In this document: positions 49,884 through 64,000 of the stretch, piece after piece | How the letters are laid out: each line of letters begins with the position of its first letter | How positions within the stretch are numbered: the stretch's first letter is position 1 | Source of the DNA: a virus | Taxonomy: Duplodnaviria > Caudoviricetes | Length of the DNA: 64,000 bases | IMG/VR virus record: IMGVR_UViG_3300028833_000053 | Strand: one strand, 5' to 3' | Notes under the pieces: model-generated | What the model was told of the DNA's origin: nothing | Database searches by the model: none | What the model saw: the letters and a program-made list of their open reading frames with translations, nothing else | Program-made: the position numbers and the translations under genes

Positions 49884-51008
49884 TTAGACCTCGTGGGATT
49901 CGTTGAGGTTCTTGCCGAACTTCTCACGCCACTCCTTGTAGAGCGGATGGCGCATGAGGTTCATCACGGCCACGGAGGGCTTGATGCGCTCGGTGCCAAC
50001 TCGGGCGGCGGTCATAGCCATCGTTGCGAACGCCGGGGGCAGACCCATCGAGATGCGGAGGAAGCCATTGACTCGGTTCGCGGTGTCCTTGTCGTCCGTA
50101 CCACGCCAGAGGTGGTACACCATCGCGGAGGTGAGCGCGTACTTGAGGTCGTCGCGGGTCGGGATGACAACCTTCTTCTTGGGATCGGTCATCATGTCAA
50201 GCACGTTGTCCATCTGAGCGGACAGCTTGTAGAACTCCATGAACTGCTGCCCAGCGGGGACACCAACCAGACCATACACGGCCTTGCGGAGCAGGGTCTC
50301 GTTCTTGAGAATCTTGCACATTTCGGAAACGCGCTCCCAAGAACGGGGGGTCGGGAAGCCACGCTCAAGGTTCTGGTCATCCACGGAGAGCAGAAGCTGC
50401 GGCTTGAAGTTGATGAAGCCAACCACGGTCGGGTGGATGTCATGCGAAACGGCCCACGTCACCCAGTCCTCGGCATTCGCCTCAATCTCAAGGTGCATCA
50501 TGCGGTTCGCAAGAGCGGAGGACATCGTGGTGGAAACTGCGCGGTCGCAAGAGCGGTTGCCAGCGGCCACAATGAACCACTTGGACGGAACCTTATAGAC
50601 GCTGCCACCACCAAGCTGGCGGTCAAGGATAAGCTCGTAGGAGGCAACCTGCACGTCCTTGGGCGCGGCGCTCAGCTCGTCAAGGAAGATGATGCCACCC
50701 TTCTCGTTGTCGATGGGGAAGATGTCAGAGGGAAGCCACTGAACGTTGTGCTTCTCGGTATTGGGAACAGGGAGACCACGGATGTCAATGGACTCCATCT
50801 GGGCGAGGCGGACGTCCACGAAGCCAACGCCCATCTCCTTTGCCAGAGACTTGACGATGGTGGACTTGCCAACGCCAGGTGCGCCCCACACCATGACGGG
50901 CGGAAGTTTGGAAGAGGTATTCTCGTCAGCGAGAATAGTCTCGATTGAGGAACGCAGGATGTCCTGCAGTTCGCTTGCGTGTACCACGTTGTGCGTGTCG
51001 ATTGCCAT
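49884..51008 (-). CDS. MoxR-like AAA+ ATPase
   Basis: WGAPGVGKS, DIRGLP, IFLDE, AAGNR, ALANR, PTPRSW; AGGAG RBS. Confidence 0.9.
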   Translation of the reverse strand: MAIDTHNVVHASELQDILRSSIETILADENTSSKLPPVMVWGAPGVGKSTIVKSLAKEMGVGFVDVRLAQMESIDIRGLPVPNTEKHNVQWLPSDIFPIDNEKGGIIFLDELSAAPKDVQVASYELILDRQLGGGSVYKVPSKWFIVAAGNRSCDRAVSTTMSSALANRMMHLEIEANAEDWVTWAVSHDIHPTVVGFINFKPQLLLSVDDQNLERGFPTPRSWERVSEMCKILKNETLLRKAVYGLVGVPAGQQFMEFYKLSAQMDNVLDMMTDPKKKVVIPTRDDLKYALTSAMVYHLWRGTDDKDTANRVNGFLRISMGLPPAFATMAMTAARVGTERIKPSVAVMNLMRHPLYKEWREKFGKNLNESHEV

Positions 51009-51250: not shown

Positions 51251-54200
51251 TCAATATGTGGTTTCATACACGTTGTTTATCTGTTCCTTGTCCTTGGAAA
51301 TGCCAAAAAGCATCTTTGATATTCTCCATGCGCAGAACCTCTCGGGCTCGGGCAAAGAACCAATCACCTTGTACTTGTACCAAGCAATCAAATCAAGGTT
51401 GTCGTCACGTTCCTCGAAATTCTCAGCCAGATTATACCACGGGGGAATTGCATAAGCCGAACCAACACGGCAACAATATTCCCACTGAGCTTCTGTCGGC
51501 AAGTCAAAGTTTATTCCGCCAGTCACGCCAGAGCTCCACCTCTTTTTCCTCCATGTGGTTTTTGTCAATCCTTGCTTATTGTCCCTTGCATCCATCAAGT
51601 ACTGCATCAACGGACTGCCACCATACTTATCGTACTTTCCATTTGCAAATCCATTCGCCTTTGCTTCATATCCAGAAACGGAGAGTCCATCACCCAATTT
51701 ATTTTCCCACCAAAGTGTATTGTAGTAATTTCCCTTTGCCCAGGTTTGATCACTCCTGTCGGGACCGCCACGACCATCACCTTCATAACCCGTGTTCACC
51801 CCGTATATTCGTGTCTGAGTTTGGACAACTACCTTGGAATTCAATATGTCCATAAAGGACATTGGCGTTGAAGGATGTTCAATCAACTGGAATTCATCTC
51901 CATTGGCTGACATAATATAGCCCTTTGTAGTAGCCTCTGCGGGCGGTGAGGAATAAAGATCCCGGGCCGAACGCACTGCGTTATAGCTCGCATAGTAAAA
52001 CGGACGTGTGTCCTCCAATGGGTTGTATATTCCCCAGTTGACCAATTTTGTTACGCGCTTTTCCTCCACTTCTGTCAATGGAACCGACCTGTATCCATTT
52101 GCGGGTGAAGAACCACCGGACGATGAATAGCCACCCTCTGAACCGGTGTCTCTCGGTGAAAGAGCAGCCAAGTCGCTGATTTGATCCTATGTCAAAATCA
52201 CCTTGCCGTTCTTGTCCTTTCCAGTCTCAAGAAGGTATTTCCATTCTTCATTCTCCCACACGCAAACATACTTCCAATAGGATTTTTCCATCTTCTTGAA
52301 ATTGGTGTCACCGATTGAACCCGGATTGCCTACTGCTTTCGCCAGATTCGCGCGGGCGTAACCCTTCATTAATGCCATGTCAGGAACCATGTTATATGTT
52401 GGGGTGTAGCCAGATTCTCCTGGCCGCTTTCCTGTTGCATCAACAATCAACTGATACGTTGTCACATAGCCAGCCTCGCCGGGCACTTTTCCATTTACAT
52501 CCTCTATGAGTTCTTTAGTCATCGGAACGGCACCACCAGAATTTTTGTGGAAACCATACACGTAGCACCATTGGGCAATCGTCAGTTCAAACGGGTCAAT
52601 GAAGAAGTGCTTGTTTCGGAAATACTTTGCGCGTTTCTTGTATGTGGTGACATATCCGGCGGCACCGGGTGACCTGCCACTGCTGTCTTTTCCCTTGGCA
52701 AGATCTCCAAACTTGTTTCTCTCGTATACCCAAGGTTGAGCAGCATCAGAAACATCTGGATTGTAGAAATCCTTCGCCCTTTCAATTGATGTGTACCAAG
52801 ACGGCCATTCCTTTTTGTTCACTGGAATGTTTGGATAGTTCCTTTGATATGAACCGCCGTTTCCAAGGGTGACATACTTGTAGTCGTCCCTTGCACTGTC
52901 AACTATGGATTCAGCGTCCCTATACTTTCTCTTGTTCGGGTCGGTTATCAAGTCATAGTCGCTTGCGTGGCTTCCCATCACGAAGTTGTCGTACATTTCA
53001 CCTGAAATTTCCTCTATGCGTGAAAGGATTATCTTGGAGGTCTTGAATTCGTCATCCGTGTTGATCCTTGCGCTGTCCTTGAATTTCATCGGAAACTTTC
53101 CAGGCTGCAACGTCAAGAGCGCCGCCGCGTCATCACTCAATCTACTGTCAATTCTCTTGTTGTATTCAGTCAAGTCAGGAAGAAGGTCTATGACGGCGTA
53201 CTTGTATGAGAATTTCTTTCCGTCGGACAAATTTCCAACACCTGAACCCGACATAAAGGATTCATAGAACACCTCCTTCAATCCAGTCACGTCCATCACG
53301 GGGATTGACTTGACAATCACGGTGTTTTCCTCGTCCTCGTAATCGGTGAGGGAACGTCCAGAAGAATTGGTCATTTCGTCAAAGACCTGATGTTGCCAAC
53401 GGTATCCCATCAATATCGGCAAGGCTTTCTTGAAGTCGGTGTAGAACGTTTTCACGAAATTGACCAACTTCGTGTGCGACCATATGTCCTTCGCCTCACT
53501 GTACGTTCCAACGTTTTTATCGGATTTCGTGGAATTCGCAATGGCGATTTTCGTCAAAGCGAATTTCCAATACGGTGGATAGGCGGGGCCGGCCCATGCG
53601 TCCGTTATTGTGGCATATGCCCCAACGTCGCCGTACCTGGTCTTGAATTCCGATGCAGGTGCGGGATTGCAAGTCAACACCTTGTTCTTCGTGGCGCAAA
53701 CAGCGGCACTGGTTATCAAGCCAGAAGAGGTCTTGGCAATGTTTTCCTGATGGACTATTATCTTCATATGTCCTGTGACAACTTCCCTTTGATCCTCACC
53801 TTCTCCCTCCATATGTCTGTATGTAATGGTAATATAGTCCAACGGTTCCTTTGTCCAGGCGTATTTGCAATCTATCTCGGTTGGCGGGGAATAATCCCTA
53901 ACCTTAAGCGACCGAATCCAACTTGTGCCAGAAGTTGAGGTCGCTCCAGAACCATACACCGAAGGACTCAACGCGGAACACATCTTATTGATGAACATTG
54001 GATAGCAAGTTCCTGCAAAATTGGATCCCGCAAGAGTCCAATCTTCGGGCCACTCGCCAGTTTCTTCGTTCTTTTTCTTCTTGTACACCACGCACAGGCA
54101 AACGGCCATAAGCTCTATGGATTCCTCCGTCAACGTGTACTTGCCCATGCGCCTAAACGGATAATCTTCAGTTTTCTTCCTTCTGTTTTTGTCGTCCCAC

Positions 54201-57200
54201 ACGGTCAATGGACACAGATGCTTGTCTATGAATTCACGAGCCTTTGCCGAAAGAATGTATTTCGGTTTTTCGTTTGTGTGATCTCCTCTTCTGTTTGCCA
54301 CGCCATCCTTTCCTTCAGGCAAGGTGCCGGATTTTGCATAGTCATATATGATTTTAGCCCAAGTATTCGGTATGTTGTAACTGGCGGCTGCTCGGGTCAA
54401 ATCAGATTCACCACCGCTCGTCACCCAACCTTCTTCGTCAGCCTCGCCATGAGGAAACACGCTTTGCACTATGTAGTCCCCCATAAAGCCGGCGAACTCG
54501 CCATCGTGGGCATGGTATTTCTAACGCCAACTGCCCTCGGCAAACGTCTCGTCTCCTTTCTTTAGCGTGCGGCAAGCGGGAAGACCCATAATGAAGAAAT
54601 ACTTGTCATAATAAGCAATCTACGTGTCGTCTTTTCCGGGGGTTGGACGGTCCTCCGCCCTTGGAATAATGACATCCTTGCTCATTGTTACTCCATTCCA
54701 AGTACCGTCTTTTTTTCCAACAAACGATTTCCATCCGTGGCGTGTGGCAAACACCATGTTGGTGCTGGTATATGGGTTTTCAAGTCCGAATATCGTTTCG
54801 AGAATACTTGCGTCTTCTTCATTGCATACGACATTCTCTATTGCGCGGGCGTCGTCCATCTGAAGGGCGTTGTTGGACATCCTCAAGATTTTCCATGTCA
54901 AAGGTTCACCGTCCTTGAGGTATTTGGAGAACCATCCCCTCATTTCAGAATCGTCGATTACAACCTAATCCATATCCTTGAACAAACGTGGTTCGTTGTT
55001 CATGTAGAAGGACTTGGCAACTTCAAGGGCGTTTGCCGCAGTAACTTCTCCCGTATCATACAACGGCGTTGGCGCGTTTGCATCGCTTACGAACATGTAT
55101 GAATTCACGGGTTGATCTGTCAACGCCATCGTGTTGCGCAATTGGAAATATCCAATCGTCTTCAACCAATCATAACTGACATAGTGCTTCTTGTCGATGC
55201 TGGAGTTTCCTGGCATCTGTCCACTTTCATACAAAGTTGACTTTTGTGTTTCCGTGAGAAGTTTCGTAGATTCCATTCCGTCAAACGGATATGTTTCCTT
55301 TTGCATATCGGCGGAAGACAAGGATCCAGAAACCTTCAAGTCATCCGTGACAACACTTCCTGCGCTCCATTTGACCGTTACGGACAGCTTATGTATTTCC
55401 TTCTCTATTTCATTGAACTTTCCAGTATTTCCATCAAGCAAGGACGACACGGCGGTCATGGCATTATACTCTTCAGACCCAGAATCCCTCGGGTTCAATC
55501 CAACATTATAGCAATAAGTCTCAAAGGTGTCCTTCAATGATGCGGCATTTCCACGCATCATTTGCAGGCAATACGGGTCTGGCGGAACCAAATCTCCCCC
55601 GAAAACGGACGTGCCACCATAGAATTGAAGCGAGGTCTTACCCGGTATTCCAGGACTGACAAGAATTTCCTTTGACTGCACACCGCCAGCTTCAGAATAG
55701 GTGGTGTCCATTTCATTGTCATATTCATTTGCAAACACGAACACCAACCTCGGAACTTTCTTTCTGAAAAGATAGCCCAATCCCCGGTGGTTTGGATGTC
55801 CATAGAAATATCCCTTTCTTATCAACTTGGACATCATGCGGCAAGTAGGTTCGCAACCGGCCCACCAGTTAGAGAGAACACCCTTGTCACTGACGATAAA
55901 CGGAAATTCAAAGTTTTCTACACCTTCATCCGTTGGGTCATAGGTGAAGAACGGAACTTCCTTGCTGAACGCCTCTTGGCCGTCTTGCGCTTCCACTGTC
56001 CACTTGTCCGTCGTTCCATTCCACGTCATCCCCTGATAGCTGGCGAAGTATCTCTGCCAATCTCCAAATTCGCCAGTTCCCTGCTTGCCCTCCAATTCAT
56101 CCTGCAATGGAACGTCTGACTCTCCGTCAACATGTACACCAGCCATTTGCTTGGTTATTCCGCCAAAAGTCAACGGCATCGGGCGAAGTTCACTGTCAAC
56201 TTCAGTACCGCCCTTAATCCAAGCTGGAACACCACAGAACAAGTTGAACTTCTTTGACAAGGTATAGTAGTAAACCGTAACGTCCGCGTCCTATGGATAT
56301 TCAGGTGGCGGGTCTTTCTTGTTGTGAACCAAAATACCTTGCTCTCCAACATAATATGTATGGGTTCCTGAAACCTCAAGGTTGTACACATATCCCAATC
56401 TCAACCCAACATCAATGCTGTCTATGGTATGCCAAGTGCCATCAGGACGCAACAACTTATCTGAAACCTTCAAATCCTGGGCCGTAACCCAATCTGTTTT
56501 TTCATCCCTGTTGACGTAGAACGGATGAACTCCGGTTGCCTCGATAGTTTCTTCTCCGACTTTTATGGTGAAAATCTCCCTGACAAGCAAGTGACGCATT
56601 GTCTTCACCACCTTGCAGTATTGATTTTTGCCGGAAACTTCATCATAGGAAAGAACCGTGTCACCCTCTTCAACCTTGTCAATGTCCTTCCGTCCATCAA
56701 GCATTATGACCTTCGTTCCAGCAACAAAACAGTCGCCGCCTTTGTTGTGAACCAACGCGCCACGTTCACCGACATAGTACGTATGCGTCCCTGAAACTTC
56801 AAGGTTGTACACATATCCCAACTTCAACGCAATGTCAATGTTGTCTATGGTGTCCCATGTCCCATTGGGGCGCAGCAGCATATCTGAAACCAACAAATCC
56901 TGTGCTTTTACCCATGACACTTCCCCACCCCTATTGACATAAAATGGATGTACTCCCGTTGCCTCAATTGCCTCATCGCCGATTCTTATGGTGAAAATCT
57001 CCCTGACAAGCAAATGCCTCAACGTTTTCACCACCCGACAGTATTCGTTTTTACCCGTGGTTTCATTATAGGAAAGAACAAGTTCACCTTCCTCAATCTT
57101 GTCAATGTCCTTTTCCGTGCCATCCGCCATAAGAACTTTCGTGCCCGCGACAAAACAATCCGTCGAGCCCTTATTGTGTGCAAGAATATGTTTTCTTCCG

Positions 57201-60200
57201 ACATAATAGTTGTGGTTCTTCGTGACTTCAATGTTGAACACGCCGGTTGACAACTTCTGCGATGCAATCTTGGAAATGCGGTGCAAACTTCTGTCATGGA
57301 ACATCACAAGGTCTCCGACAACAATCTCGTCCGCCCTAATCCAGGATTTCTTGTCCTTGCGCATGATGTAGAACCTGTGGTTTCCAGTGACATCCAATTC
57401 GTCGCCCTCGATGGTGAATGTATAGATGTCCTCGTCAACATCGTGCGTCATCGTCTGGGCAACTTCGCTTATTTCATTCTTTTCCTCTTCTTCGTTATAC
57501 GAAACAACTTGGTCTCCGACGGAAACATCCTCTATGTTCTTCAAGGAACCGTCGGACATCTCCACCTTTGTTCCGGCAACGAAACACGAATAACCGCCTG
57601 AACCACCCGTGTCGCTTCCTCTTGATTTCAGGGGTTCCTGACTCTGAATCTCCCCATCGAACCCAAAATCTCCTTCATCGCCATATTCAACCTGTATGTC
57701 ATCTTCCTTGTATTCACCAGACCACTTGTCAAGTACGTTGGACTTGTAAGACCACTCGGATTCAAGGTTCTCAACCAAGCTCCCGTCTATGGACTTGGCT
57801 GAAGAACCACCTCCCTCGCTGCCCATCATCCAGCAATTTTCATAGTAGTTCTGGAAGAACGTCTCAAACCCACTTGGCTTTCCATCCGCCCCCGTGCCCG
57901 AACCGAATGCCCCGGTTGTCCAATGCTTTTTCGATTCCGCACAACCCCATCCGTAAGGTCGGCCTTCACCATTACCTCCTCCCCAGTTTGTATATGGCGC
58001 ATTATCAGCGCCAGAAAGGTAATAGTGGTACGTTGTGCTGCCATATCCCCTTTTCCAGTTGTAGTAGCTGGGCATTCCATCGTAACTGCCATACTTTATC
58101 TGCGTATATTCAGCACACTTATGTGCGCACATGAACCTGAGCGTCGGACCAAGGAACAACGCAGAACCAACATGGCAAATGTCATATGTTCCCGTTTCAC
58201 TATATCCCGCAAACATGCGCACTATGTCGGTTGCGGATTCAATCATCCTTGTTATCTGGTTGTTCTGTGAAGCGGAAGCGTCAAAGAGGAAGAACAAGTC
58301 AACTGGACTTGTGTGGAACTCAAACGACGAACCCTCGTTTTCCGCACTGAATATCATGGAAGGTCTGAAACCAACGTTCGCCTGCGTTGCATATTTGGAC
58401 TTGAACCTGTCAGGAGCAAGTTCCTCACGGGAACTGCATATCACCTTTCTGCAAAGTTGATCGAACGCTCCACCCTTGATTACCTTCTTCGTATGCTCAC
58501 CGACAGTGACAATCGGGTTGACTTCTGGATTACCCTCTGTGCTGCCCGGACCACTTTCCTTCTTGATGGTGGCGTTCCAATCGTCCCTCACCCATTCCCA
58601 AACGTTTCCAAGCATGTCGTACATCACCAATTTGGTTGACGGGGACAACAACTTCCCTACACGGTGGATGAAAAGCTCGTTGTAAGACCATTCGTATCTC
58701 CAATAGAACTGGGGAACAACTTGGAACGTTATGGACTTCATGTCCTTCACGGTAAGGTCGTGATGGGACTTGTTCATACCTTCCATTGAAGTATAGACTG
58801 GGAACAATTGCTTGTTCAACACGGTCTTGCTGATTTTGCGAATCCACTTTTGCCTGCTGTCGTTCAAGTAGTATTCAGACTCGGGAAACTCCTAATCCAA
58901 ATCCAATGTCTTGGGGAATTGAACTGTGGTGTCGGACAACAATTGCTGATAAACAAGACTGTCTCCAATTATGTAGTTGGCGGGAACATCCTCAAACTTG
59001 AATCCCTGGTATATCCTTGCTCCCTCTGGAACAATGTCGTCCTCTTCATCTTCTATGTACGCCTTGTAGCCCTGATCATAGGGGTCGCCCAGCGGAACCT
59101 TCAACTCTCTCGGCCTCATACCATCGTGGTCGTCGTCAACGCCATCCAGGGTAGTGACTCTGAAATTGTCGTGGCTGTTCAATATCCTCTCATACGTCAA
59201 ACTGGCCCGCGCCATTTCATAGTCGATGGCATGCCATTTCACATGAGCCAAATCTTCGTCAAATTCCTCCTTCGGCCTCATCTTCCATGCGGTATACTTG
59301 GCTATAAGCTCGACCCTTCTTGCCTCTATCTCCTCGTCAGTTGGCTGAGGTATGTTTCCTGTGAACATGACGAAAGAAGCCTCGTGTTCCCTTGCGTTGC
59401 GTTCAAGGACGTGGGAAATCTCAATGAAGGAGTTCGTCCAGTGGACGTAGCAAGGCGTTCCATAATTCGTGGAAGAGCCATCAACGTCGCCAAACGTGTT
59501 CCTTCCATTTGCCATTATGTTGCCTTTCCACTTGTTCTGCTTGAACGTCCTGTATATGCTTCGGACAATCTTCTTGGTGTACTTCTCCAAGGCTTGCCAC
59601 GCTGCAAGATCGCTTCCCAACTCGCGGCGCTTGTTCTTGAAATACTTTATGTAGGTATAATGGCGTACCACGTTCCACAAGTTCCAGGTCATCGGCCTTT
59701 CATGTATGGAATCAAGAACGTCCGTGTTCATGTTCTCTGGAATCTGTTTTTTCCTGAAGTCACCGTCTCCGTGGCATTGCTCACCAAAATAGTATTTGTC
59801 CGCCGTTGGGTCTTCGTGTTGTGGCGTACCAAAGGCGTTGCTCATGTGGTGTATCTTCCACTTCTCGTTCGTGCCGGCGCAATTGGGGTCAAACACGCCC
59901 TTGTAGCAGTTTCCAGAATTGTCGGTTGTCAACACCGTGCCGCCATAGTCGCGTTTTGCAAAGTCGGTGCCAATGGTGTGCTGCACGGCGTGCCACTTGT
60001 GCTCCGACAGGAACGTAGGTGTCCTTCTTTCCTCCTTCGTGTCGGAATCAACCTCAACATACTCGTCTTGTTTTTCGTGCGCGTTGGAATAGCAATAGCC
60101 ACCCTCTTCATAGTTGAGCTTCGCACTGCTGATTCTTCCATAGCAGTCAACTGTCGGTCCGTTGTTCTAGTCGCCTCTGTTCTCCCACCAAAACACGTAG

Positions 60201-63200
60201 GGCATAATGTCCTCAAGTTCAACCACCTGGTTCAAGTCCTCCAACGGAGAAACCATCGTAATGTAGAACCACACGGAATCTTCGTCGAAATCGTCTATTG
60301 CGTGGGCTTGACTGAGGTTGTACTTGTACTTCAACCTGTCGGGACTTGCCTTTCGTGCTTCGTCATATACGTACTTGTTCACGGTCAAGTCAACGAATGA
60401 ACCGCCCTTGTCGTAATCGTCAACCCAATCCTGGTATGGGAACCTGAATTCACCAGAACCACCACTTCCAAAATCGTATTGAGTGCCATACATTCCATTG
60501 AACTCACCGTCCTTGACCGTAAGTTGCTTCAACGTCTGATATGGAATGAGCTTGGTGAACCTCTCGGCCAGCGTCTTGAGGTTGTTCTCGTTGTGGTGTC
60601 TCTTCGCCAAGAACTCGCAAGCGCGAACAATGTCGCCGAACGCAGGATCTTCCGTGCGTCCCTCATTTGACTGCTCGAATATGATTCCATTTATGTGATC
60701 GGAACTCTTCGGCACCTTGTCCGTCTGATAGGTGTCAAGCATGAAGCTGTACAACTCGCTGTTCTGCTTTATGTTGAAGAACGGAATCAAGAAGTACGTC
60801 CAATCCCTTTGGTTGTAGAGATAGTACCAAGTGCTTTTTATGTTGTCAACCAAAAAGCCGCTCTTGTCATCCTCGTCCTCGGGATTCAACTTCACCCATT
60901 TCTCGTAAACGCTTCTCTATGTATCGTCAAACACGTCAAGATGGAAGTCGCGGTCCATCTAAAGGAAGTTGTAGCCGCCAATTCTGTTGTACTTGTCATA
61001 GGACGACGGAACTATTATGGAGTCCTCGTTGTACTCCATGTTCACCATCGTCTTGGAAGGAATGGTACACCATCCAAAGACGCCATATCGGTTTTCAACG
61101 TCCGCCTGATACTTCGTGTCAGCCGCCATGTCGCAATCGTTGAATATGTCCCTTACCTTCGGCATTATGATTGGACGGTACTTCTTCACAATGGAAGTGA
61201 ATGTCTGCAACTAATCCTGACCCCTGACTATCTCGTTGTAGGTTCCGTCGTTCTTGTGTCCCAACCTATGACGCAGGAAATCGTTTGCGTCAACCGGGGA
61301 CTGGATGGTGGAGTTTTCGTAGAGACAAAGCGGACGTATGTCATAGTAGTTCTGCTGATCGTCCAAAGTCGGCGTCACGTTCGTGGAAATGTTGTCGTCT
61401 ATGGTCTTGTTCCTGTCGGTTGTGTCGTTCTTCCTCTTCTGGACGCTTTGAAGGGTTTTCCTGTAGTCATAGTAGTAGTAAAGATCGTTATAGTGTACTG
61501 CGTTCGTGTTGTATTCACCAATCAACTCGCGGTTCACTGGAGTTATTCTCCAATTCAACGCCCGTGTCTTGTCTATCCTGCAAACAAGCCTGCCATCTTC
61601 CACTTGGTTTGCCGTGTGGAAGTTGGAGAACTTGAATTCAATTGCGGGTTCAAAGGAAATCCACTTCACGTCCCCATTGAAGCACACCACCTGGTAATTT
61701 GAAGGGGTTCCGCACACAACATCGCCTGAATTAGTGCAGATTATTTCATCCAACGCCTCGTCGGCCTCACCCAATATCTCTCCATACCACCAATCTGACT
61801 TCTCGGGCACGTCTATCTTGAGGAAATACTCCTTGTGCGCTATGTCTATGTTTATCTTGAACAACGCCTTGAGCAAGTTGACAACATCAACTATTTCAAG
61901 CATCGTCAAGGGCATGAAGTCGTTTGCACTTGACTTCAATCTGTTCAACAAGCTGAGGAACGGACAAGCGGAGAATTCATCAAATCGGGATTCATCATAC
62001 TCCCTGGGATTCAACCCAATCAACGTGCAATAGCACTTACCCTCTGAATTCACCTTGTCTATGTCTGGATGACCAGACCAATACTGGCAAGTTCCCAATG
62101 TATGATCTGGTTCATCTTGAACACGGGGGTCAACCAAGTACGAACTAACGCCATCCAATTTGTCCTGTTCGTCACCATTCAAAGGAACAACAACCTTGTC
62201 GTATACTGCAACCAAAACGGATTCCGAAAGTATGGTCATGGAGGACGTTATGTTTCCACTTACCAAACTCCAATACCTGAACACATACTGGGTGCAAGAA
62301 TCATCGCCATCCTTTACATTCGTTTCCAAATGCAGGTGGAATGAAGGTATGTGCTGATTCTAAACAACATCCTGCCACTTCTCGGCCTCGTGTCCATCCT
62401 AATCTATGTACTTGAACGTCACGCGGAAGGCAGTTTCGCCACCTGCATGAATCTTCGCGGTGATATACCTTTGATATTGCTCAGCGTCGGACTTTCCATC
62501 GCAGATGATGTACTTGCTCAAGTTCTTACCTTCGTCAAAACCTTGGTTGTCACCTTCCGCAGACACGCCGGTGTTCGCCAATGGCTCGGTTCTGTCATCG
62601 CAAATTATGGCACCGCCACGTCCCTCGATGCCCGGAAGCACATCACCTTCCAAACTGCTCCAACCAAGAAACTTGAGGTTTGGATTAGAAAGTTTGGGGT
62701 TAAACGGAGGATATACCACCGTGTTCACTTCCTTGTCAATCAAGACATCGCAATAAGGCTCGTCACCAACCTTGAACGTCAATATGTCATAACCCAACGT
62801 CCAATTAGCCTCCAACACCACAATAGGCGCAGAATCCACCCATTGCTGTTGAATTCCAAACTGATACTCGTCATAGCATATGCCATAGGAACCGCCAATT
62901 GAATATTGCCAATTGGCGAACTTGTGCGTCTGCCAACGTTCACCCGTGGCGTTCAACCCAGTTGGAGAATCCAAAGGATAGTCGAATTCCCAGAATCCAG
63001 TTGGGGAATCATGGTATTCAAAGCGAAGTTTGTCCCCAGATGGTCCCGTGAAAGTGCATTTTGGCAAATTCACAAGTTCGTTGGCGCGGACCGTAATCGG
63101 CCTCATTTCGCCCGAACCACCATCGCCGGGTCTGAACTTCACGATATATTGCGTGTTCCAAACTGCATAAAGGCTCAATGTGTCGGAATCATGGAAGTTC

Positions 63201-64000
63201 CACTTCGTCAACACGTCATCCAAGTCAATGGACGGCACCTGGGCAAACCTGTCCGTGGAAAAACCAAGCAGTTCATATTGCACCGTCAATCTTGAAGATG
63301 CGTCCAAAGTCTCGTCCGTGTCCGTAAACGTTGGCTTGTTGACCAACTTCACCTCGGAAAGATCCAATTGGAAATCATCACGTTCCGCTTCAAAATGAAT
63401 TGACTGTGGTCTGTTCAACAAGTCGCGCTTGAATGAAGATCCAACCGGCACCTCGACAACCCCACCAGTCCATTGCATGTAGCTGTTCAAGTTGAAGTTG
63501 ATGTATATGTCACGGTGACGGTATCCAACATCCGCCGCGGCACGGCTATTCAACATTCCCTTTACGGGAACCGGTTCGCTTTCTTCAAAGGAAGGTGCTT
63601 CTTCAACCACAATCTCCTTGGGTGCGGAATCGCTCTCCCGGCACAATGGGCAAAGATCCCAATTCTTCAACAACCAACCCTGTCCCGTTTTCGCCAAGAT
63701 TTGAAGAAATTGCTCCAATATCTTGCGTTCATCCGTGTCTAGTCCAGAAGTGCCAGGATTCCTCCAATATTGCTCCACTTTCGCCAAATACCTCAGGTAA
63801 CCATTTGGATCATCCATATCGTTTTCGTCATAGTACACAAAGGCATTGGGGTTTTGGGAATGCTTCAAGGTGTCGGTTGTAAGGTACTTGTAGCCACTGT
63901 CGATGTTGATATGGCGTTGAAACACCTCTCCGGTTGTTGACTTGAACTGCAAATACTTGTAGAGACGCGAAAACACTCGCTCAATCACGATTGCACATTG
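51251..64000 (-). CDS. Giant multidomain protein (at least 4249 aa, 5' end outside window): InlB-B-like repeats, FGE-sulfatase halves, vWA, three Hint domains
   Basis: Ten track ORFs in one frame; each gap read by hand contains only TAG (62399, 62360, 61211, 60959, 60917, 60167, 58892, 56291, 54965, 54620, 54521, 52187); first TGA at 51251. Confidence 0.85.
56321..57586 (-). repeat. Three tandem Hint (bacterial intein-like) domains
   Basis: CFVAGTKV..TGxHxF..VxNxEV..HxYYVG..HN at 57173-57586, 56744-57157, 56321-56731. Confidence 0.93.

Follow-up and report, generated by a model that had tools for sequence, protein, structure and literature searches.

The stretch of DNA analysed here (the window) comprises 64,000 nt of the IMG/VR virus record IMGVR_UViG_3300028833_000053, a single record of 433,895 bp with direct terminal repeats. 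Its minus strand, on which the features given below by window position are found, carries the window part of a giant gene (nt 51251–64000). The start codon of this gene (G000:C1:135537) lies 1,731 nt past the window end, and the predicted product, P0002, is 4,826 amino acids (aa) long; residue i of P0002 corresponds to window bases 65732−3i to 65734−3i. The protein contains two pieces of an FGE-type C-type-lectin fold in swapped order. The piece corresponding to the C-terminal half of the fold (C-half) is in the middle of the protein, and the piece corresponding to the N-terminal half (N-half) is close to its end, just ahead of a short, conserved tail. A probable vWA-like domain, itself interrupted by a Gly-rich insert carrying three Hint domains, is found between the two. 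Directly downstream of the giant gene is a gene for a MoxR-type AAA+ ATPase.

Under the standard genetic code, the feature region is made up of five open reading frames (ORFs), all in one minus-strand frame. The stops that separate them are without exception TAG (5 of 5 inside the feature, and 12 of 12 in the window part of the gene), so the feature is a single reading frame only under a code in which TAG is sense. Reading TAG as Gln gives a frame without a stop between the window edge and a TGA codon at nt 51251–51253. Three observations support such a code. The genome encodes a tRNA with the anticodon CUA (labelled Pyl by ARAGORN; G000:C1:410487–410576, outside the window), one of 36 phage tRNAs, and this tRNA probably decodes the recoded TAG codons. 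The residue most often found opposite TAG in homologues is Gln (28 of 155 non-gap positions). Lastly, homologues have TAG at other positions, and their sequences are still continuous and alignable across these positions.

The Pfam family FGE-sulfatase (PF03781) matches P0002 twice, in swapped order, which is the pattern of two partial hits that the original prediction had anticipated. The middle match covers profile positions 176–252 at aa 2368–2456, with scores of 37–49 bits (cut-off 23.3), and the terminal match covers positions 110–138 at aa 4730–4770, with 20–21 bits, a score that taken alone falls below the cut-off. The individual motifs listed in the original prediction were all present at their given places on the minus strand. 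When the whole 434-kb genome was searched in six frames for FGE-sulfatase matches, no place beyond these two was found. The remaining ~3,000 residues of the giant protein gave no Pfam or PHROGs match.

The limits of the two pieces were set by several kinds of comparison. The C-half (aa 2343–2460; nt 58352–58705), with the GNVWEW hairpin and the final GFR strand, is delimited by PF03781, by a canonical FGE profile, by hhalign and by FGE enzymes of the PDB; it aligns to residues 217–294 of the FGE enzyme 5nxl, including hairpin and final strand. The N-half (aa 4211–4788; nt 51368–53101) is defined by four colinear hhalign hits, by the Pfam match to positions 110–138 and by PDB chains, the best of which are PorK/GldK chains, with FGE chains also matched. 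The canonical profile has 228 positions and was built from tandem-FGE proteins among the distant hits. On this scale, the middle pieces of the family cover positions 121/128–225, and the terminal pieces end at 115–129, mostly at 129. Comparison by hhalign with deeper family alignments placed the middle piece on canonical 136–225 (Prob 99, E 8e-18). The terminal region matched canonical 2–24 (E 1e-3), 42–63 (E 0.05–0.09), 68–82 (E 3e-3 to 7e-3) and 92–128 (E 3e-16, Prob 98.7), in that order, and three large variable inserts separate the four matches. Judged from these profiles, the two FGE pieces abut and represent complementary parts of one fold.

The original prediction had named a separate N-half upstream as the observation that would overturn its reading of the swapped order. 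Both gene and genome were searched for such a half, and none was found. By hhalign, there was no C-half in the terminal region (E 0.09), no N-half in the 240 aa preceding the C-half (Prob 0.2, E 0.28), and no further FGE half in aa 1–2355 or aa 2464–4204. A greedy hhalign setting (mact 0.1) did extend the middle match 90 aa upstream, raising the possibility of a hidden N-half beside the C-half. This candidate was rejected because the upstream stretch alone fails to match (Prob 0.2, E 0.28). Conservation, expressed as the proportion of homologues that share the P0002 residue, averages 0.34 over the whole protein, and both FGE halves stand out as peaks: 0.56 for the C-half and 0.56–0.88 for the terminal blocks. 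An 85-aa stretch immediately N-terminal of the C-half is also conserved (0.55).

The same arrangement is found in related phages. Homologues of 4,060, 3,797 and 3,888 aa, with ~45% identity to P0002, are encoded by TAG-recoded phage contigs of 414–418 kb, and further members occur as fragments. The order in the homologues is always the same: C-half, vWA-type metal-site motif, long stretch, N-half and end of the protein. A profile of the middle piece retrieved about 50 clusters at E < 1e-34, with ordinary FGE proteins appearing only above 1e-7, and an exhaustive HMMER search with the terminal piece gave 62 representatives at E < 1e-30. Both halves, C-half first, are present in four database proteins of 1,827–2,000 aa. 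The gap between them is ~1,750 aa in P0002 and >900 aa in the shortest relative. The position of the protein end is also maintained, as 23 of the 24 family members that reach the C-terminal tail stop no more than 15 aa after it, and the remaining one after 39 aa. The swapped order is not due to chance, since it is repeated in four independently assembled full-length homologues and in dozens of fragments. Misassembly was ruled out for the same reason, the order being shared by independently assembled relatives.

One related locus departs from this picture in its gene structure. In ENA contig k141_510252 (L013:4047–4156), the orthologous giant gene is cut into ORFs of at least 1,348 aa and of 1,827 aa by ~110 nt with TGA/TAA stops, which fall inside a highly conserved block (~aa 1855 of P0002; window ~60170). 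Either a naturally split gene or a small intervening sequence could account for the cut, as could an error in the assembly.

Structure prediction of the two halves as a complex was carried out on an orthologue, P0038, the pieces of which are ~55% and 44% identical to those of P0002. The ORF encoding P0038 is the downstream part of an orthologous gene, which has the same MoxR neighbour. Its terminal 405 aa and middle 191 aa were used as input, each with a family alignment of ~30 rows. Folding the halves together was one of the checks suggested by the original prediction, and the outcome agrees with it: the interaction prediction score from aligned errors (ipSAE) was 0.89, 0.92 and 0.90 in the P0038 runs, and 0.00 in the best of three controls, none of which was a foreign FGE half. 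Of 80 solved complexes, 58 attain this ipSAE mark, as do 2 of 110 mismatched pairs; both counts apply only approximately, because custom alignments were used for P0038. Contacts agreed between the P0038 runs by at least 81%. The predicted local distance difference test (pLDDT) value of the middle piece was 68–70 when it was modelled with its cognate and fell to 32 next to an unrelated chain; for the terminal piece, the value was 79–83 against 51–60. In the models, the interface of the middle piece is formed by residues 81–191 only, that is, by the C-half and not by the preceding 80 residues. The final GFR strand of the middle piece is predicted to pair with two strands of the terminal piece that bear canonical N-half motifs, every conserved N-half block joins the modelled interface, and the core FGE sheet is rebuilt. 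The models show that the two pieces are mutually compatible as halves of one predicted fold; what they report on is fold compatibility, not binding.

The region between the halves begins with the first part of a vWA-like domain (aa 2476–2535; nt 58127–58306), consisting of strand 1 with a DxSxS motif, helix 1 and strand 2, as delineated by invariant columns, by a predicted structure of an orthologue and by PDB comparison. In this motif, which follows strand 1, all aligned members share D2484 and S2486 and have either Ser or Thr at the fifth position. Next is a variable Gly-rich insert (aa 2536–2715; nt 57587–58126; conservation 0.18 against the mean of 0.34), and after the Hint domains comes a second part (aa 3160–3390; nt 55562–56254), identified by alignment and structural alignments and including a strand that matches the TDG strand of vWA domains (aa 3328–3336). 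Strand 2 is separated from the later strands by an insert of ~790 aa in P0002, and of no fewer than 150 aa in the shortest relatives.

The original prediction had proposed a vWA domain split around the Hints. Support for it comes from the DxSxS motif and, at the level of fold only, from structure prediction; Pfam gave no VWA match and as its sole hit Integrin_beta at E 0.14. A profile search with the vWA-like region returned family members only. An AlphaFold2 (AF2) model of residues 508–900 of a Hint-free orthologue (31 alignment rows) had a mean pLDDT of 53.8 and a predicted template modelling score (pTM) of 0.52, with confident strands and helices flanking a disordered Gly-rich stretch. When this model was compared to the PDB with Foldseek, all rows were vWA or integrin I domains, although weakly matched (best E 0.02, ~60 columns), and no row was found at E ≤ 0.001. 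VIA-align to vWA domains gave Z 5.0–5.9, a root-mean-square deviation of 3.2–4.1 and 110–123 aligned residues, and the matches span model residues 6–280, on both sides of the insert. Among 48,161 representative PDB chains searched without bias, the 50 best-scoring were vWA-type by title (Z up to 5.8), and the language-model look-alikes of the region were all VWA (0.83–0.85). The modelled fold is probably that of a vWA domain, an assignment put no higher than probable because Z is below 8.

The three tandem Hint domains (nt 56321–57586) were detected by the PT-HINT family (PF07591, 157 bits, three stretches) and correspond to aa 2716–2853 (Hint 1; nt 57173–57586), aa 2859–2996 (Hint 2; nt 56744–57157) and aa 3001–3137 (Hint 3; nt 56321–56731). 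Each copy has Cys1, a TxxH block and a terminal His-Asn, and the Cys, Ser or Thr that follows the terminal Asn of canonical inteins is in all three copies a Lys. The triplet, with a conservation of only 0.02, occupies part of the Gly-rich stretch in the vWA insert. In the full-length homologues P0003–P0005 there is a Gly-rich linker at this place and no Hint, and other members have one Hint in the vWA insert, which in P0023 lies within the Gly-rich stretch itself. The absence of Hints from three full-length homologues and their single occurrence in other members indicate later, lineage-specific insertions in a tolerant linker, outside the conserved design. An architecture built around the Hint triplet, as first envisaged, is contradicted by the same distribution. 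Cleavage by the Hints, if it occurs, would interrupt the vWA-like domain and also the loop that the lectin fold closes; because the FGE and vWA domains straddle the cut, the fragments would be expected to stay together afterwards.

The protein ends in a tail of 38 aa (aa 4789–4826; nt 51254–51367) that lies within the 60-aa window ranking second in conservation across the protein (0.78). It lies outside the confident interface of the P0038 complex model. The tail has no clear match; there are two weak, conflicting resemblances to FGE elements. At 3–4 bits only, it is similar to the part of PorK usually found ahead of the LPTEAEWEY motif.

Two Cys residues of the C-half (~aa 2425–2434; window 58430–58460) align with the copper-binding cysteine pair of true formylglycine-generating enzymes (FGE). 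In the three full-length homologues, neither Cys is present in two, and only the first in one. As the pair is not conserved, the domain is expected from its sequence to have a binding or structural role, and not to be a catalytic FGE. It may bind a ligand. In some relatives (P0031, P0033 and P0034), the loop that connects the GNVWEW hairpin of the C-half to the strand after it contains a CBM_5_12 carbohydrate-binding module, which suggests an exposed, glycan-facing surface. The domain was also considered as the target of a diversity-generating retroelement, and this was rejected, there being no RVT_1 hit in the genome and no second copy of the C-half DNA.

The MoxR-type AAA+ ATPase gene directly downstream of the giant gene (nt 49884–51008) was recognised by AAA_5/AAA_3 hits and by phrog_1297 (E 2e-89). 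It has no TAG codon. A MoxR-type gene with 77–86% identity occupies the same position in L004, L005, L008, L009/L012 and L013, and every related locus shows the giant gene followed by the MoxR-type ATPase and then the large terminase. The ATPase and the terminase are 77–86% identical between phages, compared with ~45% for the giant protein. The large terminase is in two pieces at two loci, L005:17368–19812 (~470 nt apart) and L009:13518–17183 (~1.6 kb apart), and continuous in the window, L004 and L008; the split may reflect an intron, an intein or a mobile insert. MoxR–vWA pairs act as chaperone and cochaperone, and a role in virion assembly has been proposed for them in group 2.2 jumbo phages and in Acidianus two-tailed virus, where the system is required to assemble the tail (PMC7824862). 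By analogy, the MoxR-type ATPase may help to mature the vWA part of the giant protein.

The order of the pieces, the profiles and the orthologue model all agree with the central claim of the original prediction, that the FGE halves are permuted and a vWA-like domain is nested between them. The reading proposed here is that the protein encodes one non-catalytic FGE-type lectin domain, discontinuously and in permuted form, and that the two halves assemble within one polypeptide; we judge the chance that this is correct to be about even. The C-half (aa 2343–2460) would be made first, and the chain would exit at the native C-terminus of the fold. It would then run for ~1,750 residues, through the vWA-like domain, the Gly-rich insert with the three Hints and ~850 residues of unknown fold, and return as the N-half (aa 4211–4788), entering the fold where its native N-terminus lies. 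The protein would stop where the C-half would normally begin. The halves would most likely join in one polypeptide, giving a single binding-type domain that closes a large loop. We infer that this assembly takes place in the cell and within one chain.

Several points weigh against this reading. The complex was folded on the orthologue P0038 and not on the window's own sequence, and its high score may reflect the predictor's memory of the fold, because intact FGE domains have already been solved. The middle piece alone gave a pLDDT of 31.7 in AF2 with an alignment of only three sequences, so its inability to fold alone is unproven. The greedy alignment also puts the tail weakly on the next FGE element (canonical 136–160), a resemblance that would fit a truncated second copy over a clean permutation. 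Finally, the model fits pairing within a chain and between chains alike, as does the complementarity of the pieces, and so both are equally compatible with complementation between copies of the protein. In such an arrangement, the terminal N-half of one subunit would cap the middle C-half of the next, leading to dimers, rings or head-to-tail fibres. The very large size of the protein, encoded beside a terminase gene, would suit it, and the highly conserved free C-terminal tail could be a docking element. Closure within one chain is nevertheless favoured entropically and needs no special geometry, because the native N- and C-termini of a C-type-lectin fold are adjacent, and the data call for no oligomer. 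We therefore regard pairing between copies as improbable.

The pieces might instead be independent relics of two FGE domains, each of which has lost a half, that do not meet and are stabilised by neighbouring sequence. Their wide separation, even in the shortest relative, speaks for this, as does the conserved 85-aa stretch directly before the C-half; the weak likeness of the tail to the next FGE element and the frequency of tandem FGE arrays among the distant hits point the same way. Set against this, each piece would be half a C-type-lectin fold without its partner strands, yet both are conservation peaks, their boundaries abut at the same profile position, and profile comparison finds no replacement half beside either. 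Moreover, the confidence of each piece rises only with the other present, and the 80 residues before the C-half are outside the modelled interface. This explanation is considered unlikely, though it carries real weight. An artefact, by which misassembly or a wrong reading of TAG has fused separate genes, would account for the five separate ORFs of the standard code. It is extremely improbable given that every internal stop is TAG in a single frame, that the genome itself encodes a tRNA with the anticodon CUA, that Gln is the commonest residue opposite TAG, that homologues with differently placed TAGs of their own align across these sites, and that the order is identical in independent assemblies from IMG/VR, ENA and Logan.

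Starting from the permuted lectin domain, a more speculative step can be taken, in which the split domain acts as an assembly clasp. The terminal half would capture the middle half of another subunit, or its own after remodelling of the vWA part by the MoxR-type ATPase, forming a loop, ring or fibre in the particle, and self-cleavage by the Hints would leave two chains held by two interlocked split domains. We consider this quite doubtful as it stands.

Comparison with known systems shows what is shared and what is not. PorK/GldK of type IX secretion (e.g., PDB 9mzu) belong to the same fold family by sequence and likewise do not conserve the enzyme cysteine pair, but their domains are contiguous and in normal N-to-C order, whereas the phage halves are swapped and lie 900–1,750 aa apart. 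The FGE enzymes (PDB 5nxl, 6s07 and 1y1e) share the GNVWEW hairpin and final strand with the middle piece; they keep the cysteine pair, which the phage homologues replace, and the phage protein has its N-half at another place in the chain. TvpA-type variable proteins of diversity-generating retroelements have non-enzymatic FGE-type C-type-lectin-like domains that are contiguous and in normal order. Targets of these retroelements are accompanied by a reverse transcriptase and a template repeat, neither of which was found in the phage genome. As in MoxR/vWA pairs, the phage has a MoxR-type gene adjoining that of a vWA-like protein with a DxSxS site, but here the vWA-like domain is deep in a protein of 4,826 aa, interrupted, and nested in a permuted lectin fold. 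The Hints share Cys1, TxxH and the terminal HN with bacterial intein-like/pretoxin Hints (PF07591), and differ in being three in tandem, with Lys after each, and in lying in a domain insert rather than before a toxin module. The literature gave no description of a permuted FGE domain, and a co-mention of circular permutation and formylglycine-generating enzyme concerned different proteins. The fold, the Hints and the MoxR–vWA pairing are therefore of known kinds. What appears to be new is that a lectin fold is encoded in a conserved, permuted and discontinuous way, that a vWA-like domain is nested at its junction, and that the family is restricted to giant proteins of TAG-recoded huge phages.

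Annotation pipelines and domain databases assume that domains are contiguous and of fixed order. In these proteins, a common binding fold escapes recognition as one unit, its halves being in swapped order, separated by up to 1,750 residues and hidden by recoded stops. The weight of the finding is for now architectural. If the halves do assemble, they would provide a natural example of a domain that is both discontinuous and permuted, closes a loop of very large size, carries a second, interrupted domain and tolerates the insertion of self-cleaving Hints. As a natural split-domain pair, they would be a candidate protein clasp. Such an arrangement would bear on how giant phage proteins fold and mature, and would give the adjoining MoxR ATPase a testable role in that process.

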